DNA of 64,000 nucleotides from Acidimicrobiales bacterium (GCA_039583695.1 JAVKSL010000001.1:10926-74925); one strand, 5' to 3'. Shown: positions 20,853 through 28,656, numbered from the stretch's first letter. Notes: generated from the sequence alone by a model not told the origin. Program-made: numbers and translations.

Positions 20853-22919
20853 TCATCCGAGGGCCACCACCGCCGCCAGGAGGGCAACCAGGGCCACCAG
20901 CATGTAGGCGATGTAGGCGTCGAGGCGTCCCGACTGCAGGCGCCTGGCCCAACGCGCTGCCCACAGGGCCACCACCCGGCCTGGTCTATATATGTAGGCC
21001 TCGATCGGCTCGACAGCCGTCGCTTGGTACTCGACGTGGGTGGGACCCGGGATCCCTTCGGCAGGTAGGCCACCCTTGACGACCACTACCTCGCGGCGTG
21101 ATCCGAGCACGTTCGCGAGGACATGGCGCAACACATTGGCGTAGGCGTACGCCCCGTAGCTGTCGGGGCCGGCCACCCCGGCAGTCGCCGAATGCCAGGC
21201 TGGCACCCGACGGACCCGCAGCACTCGAGTCCGGCTCAGCCCGACCGCAGCCAGGGCGACGGTCACCATCCCCACCGGTATCACCACGAAGAGCCAGGTG
21301 GGGGACAGGATGGAGAACCCACCGAACACAGGTTGGAGGACCCAGGGCGATTTGAGCGCCTGGTCGACCACCGCCGTGGGCACGATGGGGCCCAGGCCGG
21401 CAGCGATGTAGCGGATGCACCACGGAGCCGCCGCGGCCAACCAGAGGCAGCCCGAGCCCAAGAGGAGAAGGCCGGTCCGCCCCGATGCGCCGCGGTCACC
21501 CCGCCTGGGCAGGGCTCCGTTGGGCGGCGGCTGACCAAGCACGGCGAAAGCAAGCAGGCGGACGAACACCAGGGCAGCCACCCCGGCGCTGAGCGCCACC
21601 AAGGCCCCCCCACCTGCCATGGAGAGTCGCAAAGCCAAGCCGTGCACCCGAAACTGCTGCATCAGGGCTTCGAGGATGAACCACTCCGAGACGAAGCCGA
21701 TGGTCGGGGGCAGCCCAGCAAGCGTGAGAGCACCCGCCGCAAGGGTGGCCGAGCTCCAGGGGTGGGAGTGAGCTGCCCCTACTACCTCGGAAAAGCTCGA
21801 GCCTCCTCGGTCGGCCTCCACGTTGGCGACAGCCACGAACAGGCAGGACTTGGCGACTGCGTGAGCAACCGCCTGGAGGGTGGCGGCCAAGAGGCCCACG
21901 GCCAGCAATGACGGCTGACCCAGGGCCATGCCCACCATTGCCACCCCATAGCCAACCATGATTATGCCGCCGTTCTCCACGCTGGAGAAAGCGATCACTC
22001 GATTGAGGTCGGACTGCACCGCAGCAAAGACGACACCAAGGAGCGCCGTGAGACCGCCGAGGAGAAGCACCAAGGCAATCAGCCAGGTCGGCGGTGAACC
22101 CAGCACTCCGAGCATCCGCCATAGGCCGTAGAAGCCGACGTTCACCGCCAACCCGGCCATGGCGGCCCGCATGGGACCCGTAGCGGCGGGATAGCCGCGC
22201 GGCATCCACACCTGGAGGGGGACCAGGCCCACCTTGGCACCGAAACCTGCCACGATGAGCGCGTAACTTGCTGCGTGGAGGACGCCGTGCGGCACGGCGT
22301 GCCAGGATGCGATCGTGAAGCTACCGACATTGCCGGCGAGGAGGAGAAAGGCGAACGTCAGGCAGGCGCCACTGGACTTGGAGAAGCAGAGCGTGACCCA
22401 GCTGGCCCTGGCTTGGCCCACGCTCGATCGGCGTACGCCCGAGAGCACGTAGAAAGCAACCGTGAGCGACTCCCACGCAAAAAGGAAGGTGAAGGCGTCG
22501 CCGGCGACGATGATCACCGTGACCGCTCCCAGCAGCAGCATGTACCCGGCGCCGAGGCCGTGACCATGCACCCTGGGCCCTTGTGCCGTGGGCCCTTGTG
22601 CCGTGGGTCCTTGTCTGACCCACGTGACCATGCAGGCTGAGATCCCTATGCCCAGGCCAGAGGTGAGGGTGAGGAACAGCCCAGCCAGGCCGTCCAGGCG
22701 CAGGGACGTGCGACCGACACCGAGCAGGCTCCCCAGGTCGACGTTGACCGGGTGACCACCCACCATCTGGATCGCCGCGGCCAGCACGCAGGCACTGCCG
22801 AGGAGGCCGGCCAGGTAGGGGATGGGCCGGACCCGGCGGCTGCTGGCACCGAGGGTCAGGTCGATGGCGGCGCCGACGAACCAGACGACCAGGCCAGCCA
22901 GCAGCAGCTCTGCCCTCAC
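20853..22919 (-). CDS. NuoL/HyfB/MrpA-like proton-conducting antiporter subunit (last gene of the Ehr-like operon)
   Basis: A 688-aa polytopic protein of the NuoL/M/N family type. GTG 22919 overlaps the upstream TGA (GTGA). Confidence 0.85.
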   Translation of the reverse strand: MRAELLLAGLVVWFVGAAIDLTLGASSRRVRPIPYLAGLLGSACVLAAAIQMVGGHPVNVDLGSLLGVGRTSLRLDGLAGLFLTLTSGLGIGISACMVTWVRQGPTAQGPTAQGPRVHGHGLGAGYMLLLGAVTVIIVAGDAFTFLFAWESLTVAFYVLSGVRRSSVGQARASWVTLCFSKSSGACLTFAFLLLAGNVGSFTIASWHAVPHGVLHAASYALIVAGFGAKVGLVPLQVWMPRGYPAATGPMRAAMAGLAVNVGFYGLWRMLGVLGSPPTWLIALVLLLGGLTALLGVVFAAVQSDLNRVIAFSSVENGGIIMVGYGVAMVGMALGQPSLLAVGLLAATLQAVAHAVAKSCLFVAVANVEADRGGSSFSEVVGAAHSHPWSSATLAAGALTLAGLPPTIGFVSEWFILEALMQQFRVHGLALRLSMAGGGALVALSAGVAALVFVRLLAFAVLGQPPPNGALPRRGDRGASGRTGLLLLGSGCLWLAAAAPWCIRYIAAGLGPIVPTAVVDQALKSPWVLQPVFGGFSILSPTWLFVVIPVGMVTVALAAVGLSRTRVLRVRRVPAWHSATAGVAGPDSYGAYAYANVLRHVLANVLGSRREVVVVKGGLPAEGIPGPTHVEYQATAVEPIEAYIYRPGRVVALWAARWARRLQSGRLDAYIAYMLVALVALLAAVVALG
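22575..22619 (-). repeat. 15-bp in-frame tandem repeat in the NuoL-like gene
   Basis: GGGCCCTTGTGCCGT occurs twice, followed by a degenerate third copy. It encodes the GPTAQGPTAQGPRV loop. Confidence 0.8.
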
Positions 22920-23764
22920 AGGGCCCTGCCCCCCTCGGGGTTCCCCGACCTACCCCGCTCCGTGACCAGGCCGAGCGCCAAGAGGATCCCATGGAGCAGG
23001 CTGAACGGGCTCGGAGGCGAGCCCGGGACCCATACGTCTACAGGCAACAGGTCCCCGATGCCCCCGCTGGTGGCGTAGGTCCGGTGCACAAGACCACCAC
23101 TGGTGGCGTCGGTGCCAGCCGCGATCACGACCTTGGGGTCGGGCATGGACTCGTAGGTCCGCCGGAGGGGGCCCACCATTCCGGCGCTGCCCACACCAGT
23201 GGCCAGCAGGATGTCGGCGTGCCGGGGGCTGGCGGTGAAGAAGATCCCCAGACGATGGATGTCGTACACCGGGTTGCCCAGCGCCTTTACCTCCCACTCG
23301 TCGGATCCGTCGGAGCCGACGTCCACATGGCGGATGTGAACCGAGCGTCGCAGGCCGCGGGTACGCCTGGCCAGCTCGGCGCGTACCTGGGCGAGGGCTC
23401 CCTCGTCCTCCTGCACATCGGCGCCCAGGACCAGCCCCTGGCGGTGGATGCTGGCCACCTCGGGGGATGGGTCGAATCGGAACAGGTCTGGCCTTGCCTC
23501 CACGCAGCGGCCGCAGAGTATGCACCGCCCCCGGTCCAGGTGCAGCCGAGCCTTCGTCGTCCCGATAGCTCCTGTCGGGCAAAGGGCCGCGAGGTCCGCT
23601 GCCGAGCTCGTGCCGTCGCTCTCAACCTGGTCGGGCACCGCTGGCCCGCGGCGCTGCTCGACCAGACTGACCGCTCCCCGCCAGAGCTCTCCGTAGTCGT
23701 CGGGCCGAGCTGGATAACGGGTGGTGACCACCCCCTCGCTCAAGCCCCTCGTGATCCAGGGCAC
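22916..23764 (-). CDS. Fusion of a NuoI/HycF-like ferredoxin domain and a Cys-less NuoB/HycG-like domain
   Basis: The N-terminal half has LCPTGAI and CILCGRCVEARP. The C-terminal half (HIRHVDVGSDGSDEWE...SPRHADILLATG...AAGTDATSGG...VPGSPPSP) matches the NuoB/HycG fold but contains no cysteine at all. Confidence 0.8.
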   Translation of the reverse strand: MPWITRGLSEGVVTTRYPARPDDYGELWRGAVSLVEQRRGPAVPDQVESDGTSSAADLAALCPTGAIGTTKARLHLDRGRCILCGRCVEARPDLFRFDPSPEVASIHRQGLVLGADVQEDEGALAQVRAELARRTRGLRRSVHIRHVDVGSDGSDEWEVKALGNPVYDIHRLGIFFTASPRHADILLATGVGSAGMVGPLRRTYESMPDPKVVIAAGTDATSGGLVHRTYATSGGIGDLLPVDVWVPGSPPSPFSLLHGILLALGLVTERGRSGNPEGGRAL

Positions 23765-25258
23765 CTAGGTTGACGCTCCCGCGACCGAGAGACCAAAGCT
23801 CGCCTCGATGAAGACAAAGTCGGTGAAGATGTCGGTGCCAAAGGCGCTCGGAAAGAGCGCCAGATTGTGGAACGAGGCGGACCGGGGCTTTGCCCTTGCC
23901 ACCCGTCCGTCCTCGATCTCCACGAGGTACAGGATCTCGCCCTGCGGGGCCTCGGCCCAACCCAGGGCCAGGCCGTCGGCCTTTGGCACCCGGACCCGGA
24001 ACTGGGCGTTGTCCATGCCGGCCAGCAGCTCGAGCGCACCGCGAGCCAATCCCAGCGATGTCCCTATCTCTGCAAGGCGCACGTACTGGCGGGCAAGAGC
24101 GTCTCCCTCGTCGCGCGAAGCGGGCAGATCCAGGCTGAGCAGGTCGAGGTAGGCACCGTAGGGGCGGGTGCAGCGAGCGTCTTCGGTGGAGCCCGAGGCC
24201 CGCCCCACGGGACCCAGGGCACCATGGGCGGCAGCCAACGCGGGCTTGATCACACCAGTTCCCCGCAGCCGGTCGAGGAACGACGGTGTGGCCATCAGGA
24301 GATTGGCGTCTGCCCTGATGCCATGCTCCAGCTGAGCCAGCAGGCCGAGGGCCTGCGCAGGCGATATTCGAAGCGCGCCAGACACACCGCCGGGCACGAC
24401 GACCCCCCTGGCGAAGCGGTGACCGCAGAGCTGGGCTTGCAGGCGCAAGACCCGTTCTTTGTGCAAGGTCATCCGGGTATAGGCCACCGCCTGGCCGGCA
24501 CCCTCGGTGTGATGGACCACGGAGTCAAGATGGTTGGCCACACGCTCCAGCTCGGCGTGGAGGAGCCGCACAAGAGCCGCAGGCGCGGGCAGCACCACCT
24601 GTGCCAGCTGCTCCACCGCCTGGCAGAACGCCAGAGCATGAGCAACCGAGGCCACCCCCTCGACTCGCTCGCCGAGCAGGACCCCATCCTCGATGGAGAG
24701 ACCCTCGAAGCGGGCCTGGATGCCACGGTGCTTGTGATATACCCGGGTCCGTACGTGAGGGATGTCCTCTCCTGGCGTCTCGAGCAGGTACTCGATGGCT
24801 TCGTAGACGCCGGACCGCACCGGTCCGTAGGGGATCGTGAGCAACCCCTCACCCCTGGCGCGAACGGCCAACGCCCGATCGTCCAGCTCGACCTCCTCCC
24901 AGGTGACCGGAATCCTGATCTCGCCGGCTTCCCGCGGACGATGGAGCGGCAGGACCAGAGGGTCGAGCTCGGGATGGCCCAGCGGCTCGATGCCCACCAA
25001 GTCGTGAATCTCGCGCTCGTACCACGAGGCGGCCGGCACCTGGGCGGTCACGGCAGGGTAGGACCTCGCTCCTGGAGGAAGAGCTGCTTCGATCACCTCC
25101 ATCCGGTCCGGCCAGGCGAGCACGGCACGGAGGAATATCTGGTCTCCGATTGGGAAGGCGAACAGGCCAGCCAAACGCGCGGCCCCTGACCGCACGGCCT
25201 GGCCGATCACTCCAGCCAACGCGCTGCCCTCGAGCCTGGTCGTCGGGGCGAGGCTCAC
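23765..25258 (-). CDS. NuoC-NuoD / HycE-like large subunit lacking the NiFe-binding cysteines
   Basis: NuoC-like N-terminus (WYEREIHDLVGI) and NuoD/HycE-like body. At the L1 position, RxCGxCxxxH reads RVEGVASVAH. The C-terminal DPCxxC position reads EASFGL. GTG 25258 overlaps the upstream TGA. Confidence 0.85.
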   Translation of the reverse strand: MSLAPTTRLEGSALAGVIGQAVRSGAARLAGLFAFPIGDQIFLRAVLAWPDRMEVIEAALPPGARSYPAVTAQVPAASWYEREIHDLVGIEPLGHPELDPLVLPLHRPREAGEIRIPVTWEEVELDDRALAVRARGEGLLTIPYGPVRSGVYEAIEYLLETPGEDIPHVRTRVYHKHRGIQARFEGLSIEDGVLLGERVEGVASVAHALAFCQAVEQLAQVVLPAPAALVRLLHAELERVANHLDSVVHHTEGAGQAVAYTRMTLHKERVLRLQAQLCGHRFARGVVVPGGVSGALRISPAQALGLLAQLEHGIRADANLLMATPSFLDRLRGTGVIKPALAAAHGALGPVGRASGSTEDARCTRPYGAYLDLLSLDLPASRDEGDALARQYVRLAEIGTSLGLARGALELLAGMDNAQFRVRVPKADGLALGWAEAPQGEILYLVEIEDGRVARAKPRSASFHNLALFPSAFGTDIFTDFVFIEASFGLSVAGAST

Positions 25259-26793
25259 CGCGGAGGCCCCAGCTCCGCGGCAGCCCGCGCGAGGAGGTGG
25301 TCCAGCTGGGCGGGCGGATGGATGCCAAGCATGGCCAAGGCGATCAACCCCACCAGCATCGCGGCGACGATCCATCCACTGGTCTCACCCCTGATCGCCC
25401 CCTCGGGGGCAGGAGTGACCATGGCCTGGGTGCCATACCACGACAGACCGAAGAAGGCCATGGTCACTCCTGCCACCAGGATCGCAACGGCCACGTCTTG
25501 GGGATCGGACAGGCCACCGTACACGATCAGGAACTCGCTGCGAAATATCCCGAAGGGGGGGGCCGCAGACAGTCCCAAGATGGCCAGGACCAGCATCGGG
25601 CCGCTCCAAGGCAGGAGCCCGATGCCACCTCGGATCTGGGTCATGTCCTTGGTTCCCAACCTGCGCATGACGCTTCCCGCACCGAAGAAGGCGGTGGCCT
25701 TGGCGGCAGCGTGCGCCAGCACGTGGATCAGCACACCCACCACGGCGATGGTCACCCCGAAGCTCATTCCGATCATCAAGATCCCCATGTGCTCGATGCT
25801 GGAGTAGGCGAAAAGGCGTTTTAGATCGCGCTGGCTGAGCAGGTAAAGGGCAGCCAGCACCAGCGAGGCGATGCCGAACGCCAGCAGGACCTCGCGAGGG
25901 AAGGCAACCCCCACGGAGCGGATGGCGATCTGATAGTAGCGCAGTATCGCGTAGAACGCAATGGTGAGAAGTGATCCCGAAAGGAGCGCCGAGACGGGTG
26001 TGGGTGCCTCCGAATGCGCGTCCGGAAGCCAGGTGTGCACCGGGAACAGACCCATCTTGGTGCCGTAGCCAAGGACGGCGAGCACGAAGGCCAGCCGGAC
26101 GATGCCTGGGGGGAAGCGGGGGGCAGCTCGCAGCAACGGATCGAAGAACAGCTCGTAGCCCGAGCCAAGCACGGTGGAACCGGCATAGTAGATGACGATC
26201 GTCGCCACCAGGGCGATGCCCAGTCCCATGGACGCGATCAACACGTACTTCCACGAAGCCTCCGTGGCTCCCTCCGTGTTGTCGATCGCCACCAGCAGGG
26301 CCGATATGACTGTGGTGATCTCGATCGCCACCCACAACAGGGCCAGGCTGTTGACGATCGGGGCAACCGCCATGGACCAGGCAAAAAAGTTCAGGCCTGC
26401 CCAGAATCGCTGGCTGTACAGGAGAGTCCCTGGCTCAGCGGGTGTGGAGAATGTGATCAGGTTGAGCGGGCCGCCGAGCCTTCGAGAGCCGTCCAGCACC
26501 TCCCGCGGCTCTCGCTTCGGTCCGTGCAGGTACCCAACAGCGAATATGGAGGTGACGGCATAAAGGAAAGCGGTGGCTACCAGGAACACCACGGAGAGCG
26601 CGTCGGCCCGCAACCAGGAGTCGAGAGCAAGGACCGAATGAGACCCGACCCCGGGCACGAGGGCCAGGGCCAGCCCAAATGTTGCGACGCCAGCCGAGAC
26701 GGTCAGGCCTCCAGCGAGCGCTGGCGAGCTGCGCCACGCCACCAGGCCGACCACGACCGGCATCACCAGGATCACGACCAGGATCGCGCCCAC
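25255..26793 (-). CDS. NuoN/HyfF/MrpD-like antiporter subunit
   Basis: A 512-aa polytopic protein with NuoM/N-family blocks (WLPDAHSEAPTPVSALLSG...). Confidence 0.85.
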   Translation of the reverse strand: MGAILVVILVMPVVVGLVAWRSSPALAGGLTVSAGVATFGLALALVPGVGSHSVLALDSWLRADALSVVFLVATAFLYAVTSIFAVGYLHGPKREPREVLDGSRRLGGPLNLITFSTPAEPGTLLYSQRFWAGLNFFAWSMAVAPIVNSLALLWVAIEITTVISALLVAIDNTEGATEASWKYVLIASMGLGIALVATIVIYYAGSTVLGSGYELFFDPLLRAAPRFPPGIVRLAFVLAVLGYGTKMGLFPVHTWLPDAHSEAPTPVSALLSGSLLTIAFYAILRYYQIAIRSVGVAFPREVLLAFGIASLVLAALYLLSQRDLKRLFAYSSIEHMGILMIGMSFGVTIAVVGVLIHVLAHAAAKATAFFGAGSVMRRLGTKDMTQIRGGIGLLPWSGPMLVLAILGLSAAPPFGIFRSEFLIVYGGLSDPQDVAVAILVAGVTMAFFGLSWYGTQAMVTPAPEGAIRGETSGWIVAAMLVGLIALAMLGIHPPAQLDHLLARAAAELGPPR

Positions 26794-26796
26794 TAC

Positions 26797-27468
26797 CTAG
26801 CCCTTCAACCTATCGAGGACGTCTGTGGACAAGGTGTCGGCCTTCATGTGGTGGACCCGCATCAGCACCCCGAACACCACGACGGCCACCAGCAAGTCGA
26901 CCAGGAATGCCACCTCGACGATAAAGGGCAGCCCGGCAGCCACCACCAGGCTGGCGACGGACACCCCGTTCTCCAGGGAGAAGAAGCCCACGGCCTGGGA
27001 TACCACGTCCCCTCGCAGGATTATGACCACGAAGGAGACCAGCACCACCGCAACGGCCGTACCGAGGGCCGGAGTGGGCAACGTCGCCGAGTGGATGTCG
27101 AGGCCTTCCACCGCCAGGAAGCCGAAGACCGAGACGGAGATGCCTATGAAGATCATGGTGGCCACGTTCAGCCGGTGGCTGCCCGCCAAGTCCACCTTTG
27201 ACCCCCGCATGACCCGAAAGATGATCCCTGGGATCAGGATTACCTTGAGAACCAAGGTCAGTCCGGCCAGGATGAAGAGATCGGGTATCCCCCGCGCCGC
27301 CGCCACTGCTGAAGCGAGAGCGGCAACCACCAGAGATTGGAACGAGTAGAGCCGGACCTGCGAGCGCAGCATCGCGGAGCGAAGCATCGCGAACTCGGTC
27401 AACAGGATCAGGGCGGCCAAGCCTTCCGTGATCCCCGAGAACGTGCCGGGGTCTGGGGTCGGGTGCAT
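26797..27468 (-). CDS. HyfE/HycP-like small membrane subunit (NuoK-related)
   Basis: Start at ATG 27468 (MHPTPD...), sharing one nt with the upstream TGA. About 223 aa and hydrophobic, with its position matching hyfE/hycP. Confidence 0.75.
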   Translation of the reverse strand: MHPTPDPGTFSGITEGLAALILLTEFAMLRSAMLRSQVRLYSFQSLVVAALASAVAAARGIPDLFILAGLTLVLKVILIPGIIFRVMRGSKVDLAGSHRLNVATMIFIGISVSVFGFLAVEGLDIHSATLPTPALGTAVAVVLVSFVVIILRGDVVSQAVGFFSLENGVSVASLVVAAGLPFIVEVAFLVDLLVAVVVFGVLMRVHHMKADTLSTDVLDRLKG

Positions 27469-28421
27469 CAGGCGTACCCCACGTAGAGGGTCAGGATTGC
27501 CAGCACCGCCAAGAGGAAGGCGGCAGCCATGAACTCGGTGAGCTTGAACAGGCGCAGCTTCGAGAAGGTGTTGTCGCTCAGCGTCAGGACAGCCCCCACA
27601 CCGACTGCCTTTCCAAGCAGGATGGGTATTGCCAGGAGGACCGAGCCGGCGGCCAAGGAGCCAGCCAATCCCCACGGAGCTGCGAACACGTCCAGGAGGA
27701 TCACGTACAAGATGACCTGTTTCATGTTGGAGCCCCACTTGAGCAGGGCGAATGGGGGCCCGGACCACTCGAGCGTGCGTCCCTCGTCGATCATGCCGAG
27801 CTCGGTGGTGCTGGCGTGGGTCTCCACCGGGATGCGACCGGTGTCGGAGATGACCACCAAGAAGAAGGCGATGGCGGCCAGGAGGTGGGCCGGAAGGATG
27901 GCCTGGCTGAGCGAGGAGCGCGCCGCAGCCGCCTCGACGAAGGGGAGGTCGGTGCTGGTGACGATGCCGACCACGAAGGTGATGAACAGGATCGACGGCT
28001 CGATCAGCGCCCCGAAGGTCATGGCCCGGCTGCTGCCCAGCTGGGCGTAGGGGGCCCCGGTCTCGGCTGCCGCCAGGGATACGGAGAATCCCGCAAGGGC
28101 AAGTATGAAGGCCCCGCCCAAGATGTCCGCCGTGTAGGACAGCGGCAGCCCGAAGTTGGTCAGCTCAGGAATCAGCAGGGGGACTATCAGGTAGCAGGTG
28201 AAGGCCACCACCGGGGCCGCCAGGAAGACCCAGCTGGACTCCTCGGGCATGAGCGTCTCCTTCCTGAACAGCTTGGCCAGGTCGTAGTAGGGCTGGAGCA
28301 CGCGAGGCCCCCGCCTTCCCTGTAGCCGCGCCTCGATCTTGGCGATCACCCCACTCACCAACGGAGCGCCGAGCGCGACAGTGAGCACCTGCAGCACCTG
28401 AGCCAGCCACGCTGGTAACAC
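27468..28421 (-). CDS. NuoH/HycD-like membrane subunit (first gene of the Ehr-like operon)
   Basis: ...GAPLVSGVIAKIEARLQGRRGPRVLQPYYDLAKLFRKE is typical of HycD/NuoH. Start placed at GTG 28421, which follows GGACGGAGGA; the tracked ORF begins at TTG 28466. Confidence 0.85.
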   Translation of the reverse strand: MLPAWLAQVLQVLTVALGAPLVSGVIAKIEARLQGRRGPRVLQPYYDLAKLFRKETLMPEESSWVFLAAPVVAFTCYLIVPLLIPELTNFGLPLSYTADILGGAFILALAGFSVSLAAAETGAPYAQLGSSRAMTFGALIEPSILFITFVVGIVTSTDLPFVEAAAARSSLSQAILPAHLLAAIAFFLVVISDTGRIPVETHASTTELGMIDEGRTLEWSGPPFALLKWGSNMKQVILYVILLDVFAAPWGLAGSLAAGSVLLAIPILLGKAVGVGAVLTLSDNTFSKLRLFKLTEFMAAAFLLAVLAILTLYVGYA

Positions 28422-28656
28422 AAGAATCCTCCGTCCTCGTCGTGCCAAGTAGTCCTGCTTCAGCAAAGTTCCGCTGAGCAGAAGCCATCAGCTCCAAGGA
28501 GCAGTTCGGGTCGTGGCCCGCCGGAGCTTCATCCGACACGGGCATGGTAGCAGTCGGGCGCCCATCGCGCGTAGATCGGCGAACAGAGTACCTTTGACCC
28601 CACATGACACGCCCACGCATCTACCGGGAGCGACTCGCTACGCTCGGGGGGACGGG

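Follow-up and report, generated by a model that had tools for sequence, protein, structure and literature searches.

A predicted fluoride riboswitch precedes an Ehr operon of Actinomycetota whose cysteine-poor small subunit is probably part of an ion-handling complex rather than a hydrogenase

What can a relative of the [NiFe] hydrogenases do once the ligands of its metal centres have gone, and why should its genes stand behind a fluoride riboswitch? The question is raised by a six-gene operon in a 64,000-nucleotide stretch of an Acidimicrobiales genome (GCA_039583695.1, JAVKSL010000001.1:10926-74925; hereafter the window), one gene of which encodes EhrS, a small subunit with a ferredoxin remnant fused to a NuoB/HycG-like domain. 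According to two reports, 'formate hydrogen lyase' and Na+/H+ antiporters are among the genes most commonly associated with fluoride riboswitches (PMC11139923, citing Baker et al. 2012; PMC8004769), and the former has been interpreted there as a shift to fermentation (PMC11139923). Judged from its sequence, the window operon is one of these riboswitch-associated 'formate hydrogenlyases', yet it cannot encode a hydrogenase; instead, EhrS probably serves ion handling in the response to fluoride stress. A preliminary description of the window had singled out EhrS as a NuoI-NuoB fusion that keeps one set of [4Fe-4S] ligands, has no cysteine in its NuoB half, and may have been repurposed, for example on an antiporter module. 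The gene and the relevant parts of its product are these:

EhrS, 22916..23764, (-): 282 aa; ferredoxin remnant fused to a NuoB/HycG-like domain
EhrS residues 1-35: HycF/NuoI-like N-terminus
EhrS residues ~58-100: one-cluster ferredoxin with C62, C81, C84 and C87
EhrS residues ~141-268: NuoB/HycG-like and Cys-free, with D152, D155, D219 and S249 on former cluster ligand positions
Cysteine codons, (-): C62 23581-23579; C81 23524-23522; C84 23515-23513; C87 23506-23504
Codons of the replaced ligands, (-): D152 23311-23309; D155 23302-23300; D219 23110-23108; S249 23020-23018

All the motifs on which the preliminary description relied (RRSVHIRHVD, VGSDGSDEWE, AAGTDATSGG, VPGSPPSP, LCP, CILCGRC and CVEARP) occur in the 282-residue translation. 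EhrS has cysteines only at residues 62, 81, 84 and 87 and none thereafter; the segment from RRSVHIRHVD through the C-terminus is indeed free of them. When EhrS was aligned with the small subunits HycG (7z0s_G) and MbhJ (6cfw_J) using HMMER, D152 and D155 fell on the C-N-G-C pair (C-x-x-C), D219 on the cysteine of GxC(A/G)xxGG, and S249 on that of PGCPP. Thus, none of the four cysteines that hold the proximal (N2-type) cluster in NuoB/HycG small subunits is kept in EhrS, where the four positions read Asp, Asp (Glu in most relatives), Asp and Ser. The alignment upholds the earlier reading of these positions as cysteine-less, and the replacements are specific, being three carboxylates and a serine rather than random residues.

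The ferredoxin half has been reduced in a different manner. The two CxxCxxCxxxCP motifs of NuoI/HycF, with their eight cysteines, are not present in EhrS, in which four cysteines remain. Alignment with fused relatives that possess all eight identifies C62 (in LCPTGAI) as the fourth cysteine of motif 1 and C81, C84 and C87 as the first three of motif 2, with R91 at the fourth position. In ferredoxins with two [4Fe-4S] clusters, the fourth cysteine of motif 1 and the first three of motif 2 together ligate a single cluster. One complete ligand set is therefore left, as had been proposed, and the ferredoxin inserts of DsrA and DsrB display the same pattern. Following the assignments for Thermus Nqo9, we take the remaining cluster to be the equivalent of N6b, the neighbour of N2 in NuoB.

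Both halves of the fusion can be recognized by profile and by fold. Pfam detects Oxidored_q6 (PF01058, the NuoB family) in residues 155-261 with 62.7 bits against a cut-off of 27, and a single-cluster Fer4 domain (Fer4_15/Fer4_13) in residues ~75-120. The NCBIfam models for NuoB itself match below their cut-offs (NF005012, 98 vs 116; TIGR01957, 90.4 vs 142.7). Among solved structures, the C-terminal half matches HycG (7z0s_G, E 8e-32) and MbhJ (6cfw_J, E 3e-27) in HMMER searches, and a Foldseek search with an AlphaFold2 (AF2) model of EhrS (predicted local distance difference test score, pLDDT, 70) returned HycG 7z0s_G first (E 1.6e-11, probability 1.0), followed by NuoB/PSST chains. With a profile of the N-terminal half, weak similarity is detected to NuoI/TYKY chains across positions 5-110 of that profile (E ~3e-4) and to HycF (E 0.013), which agrees with the description of EhrS as a NuoI-NuoB fusion. 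Its top solved matches are the DsrA/DsrB ferredoxin inserts (3mm5; E 2.6e-7 and 3.4e-6), which like EhrS combine a CP (LCPTGAI), a CxxCxxC and a following xP and lack the final cysteine; unlike EhrS they reside in an unrelated protein, and they support only the sufficiency of such a ligand set for a single cluster. The start codon of EhrS is correct: its homologues begin, at the identical position, with MPW(I/V)xRGL, and the GTG abuts the stop codon of the upstream gene EhrL.

If the loss of cysteines were mere decay, the replacing residues should vary. We searched 5.8 billion proteins and examined 120 homologues among the matches listed, which share 60-83% identity with EhrS and come mostly from metagenome-assembled genomes (MAGs) of Acidimicrobiales and other Actinomycetota. 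In this set the critical positions read as follows:

C62, C81, C84 and C87: 120/120 homologues
D152: 120/120 homologues
Position 155: Glu in 101 and Asp in 16 of 120 homologues
D219: 119/120 homologues
S249: 120/120 homologues

Exactly four cysteines are found in 98/120 homologues, and the motifs that surround the ligand positions, HVDAGSDGSEEWE, AAGTDAxSGG and VPGSPPSPF, are near-invariant. Reading frames are open in 77 of the 81 orthologous genes that we extracted. For these 77 intact genes, the ratio of nonsynonymous to synonymous substitution rates (dN/dS, Nei-Gojobori) is 0.18-0.25 in the closest pairs; the NuoB-like half has a median of 0.22, and the ferredoxin half, which includes a variable linker, one of 0.45. 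As dS is near saturation in many pairs, these ratios are, if anything, overestimates. Thus, (near-)invariance of the replaced positions together with dN/dS of ~0.2 indicates that EhrS is under selection and not decaying. The pattern of cysteine loss is conserved among orthologues, which distinguishes purifying selection from decay as the preliminary description had suggested it might, and the picture of random substitutions and frameshifts that would have spoken for decay is not the one observed.

EhrS is the fifth product of a compact operon on the (-) strand:

EhrB, 27468..28421, (-): NuoH/HyfC-like, first gene; Pfam NADHdh, E 8.5e-35
EhrB start: GTG at 28421, preceded by the Shine-Dalgarno sequence GGAGGA
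EhrC, 26797..27468, (-): HyfE-like; NCBIfam NF008556 (hydrogenase 4 membrane subunit), E 5.3e-25
EhrC start: ATG at 27468, with a one-base overlap with the EhrB stop codon
EhrD, 25255..26793, (-): HyfF/NuoM-like, antiporter-type; Pfam Proton_antipo_M, E 6.9e-50
EhrL, 23765..25258, (-): NuoC+NuoD/HycE-like large subunit; Pfam Complex1_30kDa and Complex1_49kDa
EhrL start: likely GTG at 25258, overlapping the EhrD stop codon
EhrA, 20853..22919, (-): HyfB/NuoL-like, antiporter-type, last gene; NCBIfam NF005086 (hydrogenase 4 subunit B), E 2.7e-107
EhrA start: GTG, overlapping the EhrS stop as GTGA

Every junction overlaps or abuts, and the six genes are translationally coupled; the NF008556 match to EhrC spans residues 112-323 of its long open reading frame (ORF). 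EhrL is a large subunit of the group-4-hydrogenase type without either of the two CxxC motifs that bind NiFe, which is the definition of Ehr, and the operon has the Ehr composition of a NuoH-like, a HyfE-like, two antiporter-like, a large and a small subunit, with no module for NADH, formate dehydrogenase (FDH) or carbon monoxide dehydrogenase (CODH). Formate hydrogenlyase and hydrogenase-3 or -4 are not described by it, since NiFe ligands are missing and a single cluster set stands in place of a three-cluster relay. Being a group-4-hydrogenase relative without the metal-binding cysteines, the product of the window operon is thus a six-subunit Ehr complex.

In EhrL, the sequence ERVEGVASVAH aligns with RVCGICGFAH of HycE, and the C-terminal DPCxxC region reads FGLSVAG. 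The NiFe-binding CxxC motifs are absent from EhrL and from 78-80 aligned relatives, in which the former cysteine positions are again occupied by preferred residues: at the first of them E239 in 78/78, Ala at position 242 in 63/78, S530 in 72/80 and G533 in 80/80. E158, K246 and E420 of EhrD align with E144, K234 and E407 of NuoM and are invariant, as are H361 and K365; the invariant residues also comprise E150, K229, H353, K357 and E412 of EhrA and K175, E266 and D291 of EhrC, and the invariant acidic residues of EhrB include E156, E215, E222 and E228. The membrane arm therefore looks functional, with its predicted ion-translocation residues in place, and these invariant intramembrane Glu, Lys and His residues lend substance to the suggestion of a repurposed module seated on an antiporter-like arm.

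A fluoride riboswitch, in a variant form with an inserted hairpin, lies directly upstream of the Ehr operon; to our reading this association is new:

Fluoride riboswitch aptamer, 28474..28539, (-): operon leader; variant with an extra hairpin between P1 and the AAC junction

At the gathering threshold, Rfam gave no match anywhere in the 64-kb window. The local match of RF01734 at 28472-28531 (-) reaches 25.2 bits against a gathering score of 34 (E 4.8e-5), and genome-wide the element ranks as the third-best match to this family (E 1.1e-4). The low score is due to the inserted hairpin. Indeed, a covariance model built without the window sequence found 28474-28539 (-) with 54 bits (E ~1e-14) as the sole strong match in the 64 kb. 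When 20 leaders are aligned, pairing reaches 96% in P1, P3, the pseudoknot and the inserted hairpin, and six pairs show compensatory changes, a number that none of 500 shuffles equalled; the window itself contributes the compensatory pairs A12:U72 in the pseudoknot and U52:A62 in P3. The insert is variable among Acidimicrobiales (the window and loci L004-L058), measuring 17-44 nt between P1 and the AAC junction, with compensatory changes in 4/5 pairs at its base. It drops many true aptamers below the Rfam gathering score.

In seven of nine loci tested, RF01734 nevertheless exceeds its gathering score immediately in front of EhrB, and by combining regular expressions with our covariance model (R1) we located an aptamer in front of the operon in at least 60 of the 62 loci for which upstream sequence was available. 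Regular expressions alone recovered 3/62 loci in a strict and 34/62 in a looser version, the covariance model being needed for the variant with the inserted hairpin. Several loci are flanked by additional riboswitch copies that precede adjacent genes. P1, pseudoknot, P3 and the CUGAUGG core of the predicted aptamer are thus all present directly upstream of the window operon, as in fluoride riboswitch regulons, and from this architecture the operon is predicted to be switched on by fluoride. The minimum free energy fold of the leader, with a z-score of only -1.3, hints that without a folded aptamer the 5' strand of P3 is free to base-pair with the Shine-Dalgarno region. We found no paper in the open literature that notes riboswitch-led 'formate hydrogenlyase' operons devoid of NiFe and FeS ligands, and a literature search for links between the fluoride riboswitch and hydrogenase-like or Ehr details returned nothing relevant.

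How such a complex came about can be read from its relatives. A HMMER scan of 1.84 billion representative proteins yielded 5,209 relatives of EhrS, and those with both domains form a series: an eight-cysteine ferredoxin with a CCCC proximal set (three clusters), a four-cysteine ferredoxin with CCCC (two clusters), and a four-cysteine ferredoxin with D-(E/D)-D-S (one cluster); a few other cysteine-less patterns are scattered among them. In a midpoint-rooted tree of the NuoB domain (142 columns, ligand columns included), the window sequence belongs to a clade of 40 rows without a single cysteine-bearing member (Shimodaira-Hasegawa-like approximate likelihood ratio test, SH-aLRT, 91), and other losses are scattered. 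The two-cluster form occurs mainly in Dormibacterota. Three metagenome contigs of that phylum (loci L096-L098; relatives of P0152) share with the window operon the six-gene order, the fused small subunit with a one-cluster ferredoxin and a NuoB-like domain, the large subunit without NiFe cysteines and, in front of the operon, an element that resembles the fluoride riboswitch (33.1, 27 and 26 bits; E 2e-5 to 4e-3). In contrast to the Actinomycetota, they keep an intact CNGC...C...GCPP set for the proximal cluster and have Ala in place of EhrL Glu239.

Since this sister family keeps the proximal-cluster cysteines and is also led by a riboswitch, the clusters were evidently lost stepwise, and control by fluoride is independent of the loss of the proximal one. 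Three sites have been lost from the complex in the Actinomycetota clade, namely the one for NiFe and those for the distal ferredoxin cluster and for the proximal (N2-type) one; carboxylates at both former metal sites are specific to this clade. The Dormibacterota family provides a natural comparison set for the effect of cluster loss.

Known systems resemble the window complex in part. The Ehr complex of Geobacter sulfurreducens (EhrA-D, L and S), which owes its name to Coppi 2005 and was covered in the survey of Marreiros et al. 2013 (via PMC7894505, PMC3569383 and PMC6349859), has the same six-subunit set (also PMC10284858) and a large subunit without NiFe cysteines, and likewise no assigned function. 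In the window operon, by contrast, a HycF-like remnant is fused to the small subunit, Asp/Glu/Asp/Ser occupy the ligand positions, and a riboswitch is in control. Coppi 2005 and Marreiros et al. 2013 aside, the Ehr literature, in its openly available portions, discusses loss of cysteines for the large subunit only. E. coli HycF and HycG (7z0s) and P. furiosus MbhN and MbhJ (6cfw) correspond to EhrS in their ferredoxin fold and NuoB-type half and are accompanied by the same kinds of membrane subunits; they are separate proteins with three [4Fe-4S] clusters that feed a NiFe site, whereas EhrS is fused and has one set. Unlike E. coli formate hydrogenlyase, the window operon lacks at its locus the NiFe site, FDH and the HycB partner.

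Mrp antiporters also have Proton_antipo_M subunits, with a Glu in transmembrane helix (TM) 5, a Lys in TM7 and a Glu/Lys in TM12, and both Mrp and the window complex are proposed to move ions without electron transfer; Na+/H+ antiporters, like the window operon, are common in fluoride regulons (PMC11139923). Mrp differs in having no peripheral NuoH/NuoD/NuoB/NuoC-like module and no iron-sulfur site. In the window operon we recognized MrpA/D-like (PF00361) and NuoK/HyfE-like subunits and did not see homologues of MrpB, E, F or G. The comparison with Mrp would thus be a matter of working alike, not of membership.

What, then, does the complex do? It descends from group-4 [NiFe] hydrogenases and is a relative of complex I. 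Physiological electron tunnelling has a usual limit of ~14 Å. In solved homologues, the cluster that remains in EhrS lies about two relay steps from the former active site, past this limit, from which we infer that no electron path leads there and that the complex is not an electron wire. We rate at somewhat better than even the reading that it is a fluoride-induced, Mrp-like ion translocator. The membrane arm would move protons or other cations and help the cell to keep its pH and ion balance while HF/F- lowers the cytoplasmic pH, and the peripheral arm would be a structural or gating cap. The acidic Asp-Glu/Asp-Asp-Ser pocket may bind a cation or supply fixed negative charge, and the single [4Fe-4S] cluster could be structural or act as a redox sensor; more speculatively, the three carboxylates might match the net charge of a reduced [4Fe-4S](Cys)4 centre. 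Entry of HF is favoured at low pH, and it is for this reason that the many peat, bog and palsa MAGs among the carriers fit the link with fluoride.

Several points weigh against the translocator. It is hard to see what an invariant [4Fe-4S] site would do in a transporter that is purely secondary, and typical Mrp antiporters take H+ in and Na+ out, the wrong direction for relief of acid stress. The position of NuoM K265 is Thr in EhrD, the window aptamer scores below the Rfam gathering score (25.2 vs 34 bits), the AF2 model of EhrS is of moderate quality at its pLDDT of 70, and the ancestral fluoride-linked function may have used electron transfer through two clusters, as in the present Dormibacterota state. 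Alternatively, the complex might still be a redox enzyme, with a soluble protein such as ferredoxin donating electrons to its cluster and the cluster reducing a nearby substrate, or the Asp/Glu/Asp/Ser pocket and Glu239 binding a non-cysteinyl Fe or Mn, with ion pumping that rebuilds the proton-motive force. A four-cysteine set invariant in 120/120 homologues, two adjacent clusters in the Dormibacterota sister family, and conservation of the entire peripheral arm, its NuoC-like domain included, all speak for that; so does the physiology, as fluoride export depends on the proton-motive force (PMC11139923) and a primary pump would suit it. Such an enzyme is nonetheless unlikely in our judgement, with no recognizable electron-input module or acceptor-site residues (by our own reading of the alignment, the equivalents of Tyr87 and His38 of Nqo4 align to Gly and Tyr) and no conserved partner redox genes nearby; we know of no iron-sulfur cluster with four non-cysteine ligands either.

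The carboxylates invite two further proposals, both rather improbable. The former metal sites could have been rebuilt as one carboxylate site (Asp-Glu-Asp-Ser plus the Glu of EhrL) that holds a hard cation (Mg2+ or Ca2+, perhaps together with fluoride) or imitates a reduced cluster in its negative charge; the complex would then be a conformational machine of the complex-I type and a dedicated fluoride-stress pump, which the binding of ions or a redox-sensing single cluster, and not electron transfer, would drive or gate; if true, this would explain the 'formate hydrogenlyases' of fluoride regulons. Slightly less likely again is a complex that acts on fluoride directly, its pocket binding Mg2+ (or Ca2+) and thereby F-, much as the riboswitch does, and sensing or extruding F-/HF, a metal-fluoride or divalent cations in a proton-coupled manner. 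Three carboxylates and a serine are typical ligands of hard cations, acidic residues at both former metal sites coincide only in the Actinomycetota clade (the sister family has Ala and Cys), the riboswitch link is near-universal, and the source assembly, although 96.7% complete, yielded no homologue of CrcB/Fluc (PF02537). This case is purely inferential, however, and the sister family is linked to fluoride without an acidic pocket. The four CLC-family genes that we found in the source genome could include a CLC-F exporter, and CrcB adjoins the operon in seven related loci, where the two thus occur side by side rather than as alternatives.

Finally, the loss of cofactor ligands at three sites and the truncated relic of a second, similar locus elsewhere in the genome might suggest that the gene is no more than a non-functional leftover from a decaying hydrogenase operon. 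The replacement residues are invariant, though, dN/dS is ~0.2, frames are intact, gene order is conserved in two actinobacterial classes (at least 354 species genomes with relatives), and translational coupling and the riboswitch are maintained; we give this explanation almost no credence. Simple decay of EhrS was effectively refuted by the conservation data and dN/dS, and we rejected it.

Relatives of EhrS are labelled in databases as Ni,Fe-hydrogenase III small subunit, formate hydrogenlyase subunit 7 or NuoB. The Actinomycetota clade can be neither a hydrogenase nor an NADH dehydrogenase. In the Actinomycetota and Dormibacterota families that we examined, the riboswitch-led operons are Ehr operons without a NiFe site, and in Actinomycetota the electron relay is absent as well. 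A puzzling association of 'formate hydrogenlyase' with fluoride is thereby turned into a testable hypothesis of ion and pH homeostasis under fluoride stress. Furthermore, the series from three through two to one cluster, with acidic replacements and an intact membrane arm, amounts to a natural experiment that shows how much of the complex-I coupling machinery survives without redox chemistry.

The surroundings of the operon were surveyed in one genome per species, which gave at least 354 relatives, of which the best 80 loci were kept. All 80 belong to Actinomycetota (Acidimicrobiales and Actinomycetes), many of them being the peat, bog and palsa MAGs already mentioned, and two carriers among them are cultured, Streptantibioticus parmotrematis Ptm05 and Actinoallomurus acaciae TBRC 0563, at loci L016 and L064. 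All six genes follow one another as B-C-D-L-S-A in 60/80 loci, the others being cut by contig ends or confounded by cross-hits to paralogues. In the window, the flanking genes (an epimerase, a DNA methylase and a HemD-type regulator) are unrelated to the operon. Its flanks contain no gene for FDH, HycB, CODH, hyp or another electron-input function, and the related loci none for FDH, HycB or hyp, the rest of the genome not having been searched for hyp or FDH; a search of flanking genes across 60 loci found no conserved redox neighbour. Among recurrent neighbours, a universal stress protein is encoded downstream in 17 loci, CrcB upstream in 7 and enolase upstream in 4, and a gene for a dynamin-like GTPase follows the operon in ~6 related loci. 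Some neighbours carry fluoride riboswitch copies of their own, and the operon thus often lies within a fluoride-response island.

The source genome, of 3.2 Mb, encodes a canonical complex I elsewhere. Two further matches to PF01058, at C1:105564-105914 (+) (L082) and C17:24846-25352 (-) (L083), lie in ORFs of 402 and 544 aa, and the genome may accordingly encode true [NiFe] hydrogenases as well. Its two strongest fluoride riboswitches, at C23:8448-8508 (+) (L088) and C38:2836-2895 (-) (L089), precede genes for a MutS-domain-V protein and a dynamin-family GTPase. A fourth fluoride-riboswitch-like element, at C30:30912-30973 (-), scores 20 bits with Rfam and 28 bits with our model R2. Downstream of it (L091:35-1556), an N-terminal fragment of EhrB (residues 23-80, in two frames) is joined to an EhrA-like C-terminal third that resembles residues 405-685 with 28% identity, and by its composition the locus resembles what deletion would leave of a second Ehr operon.

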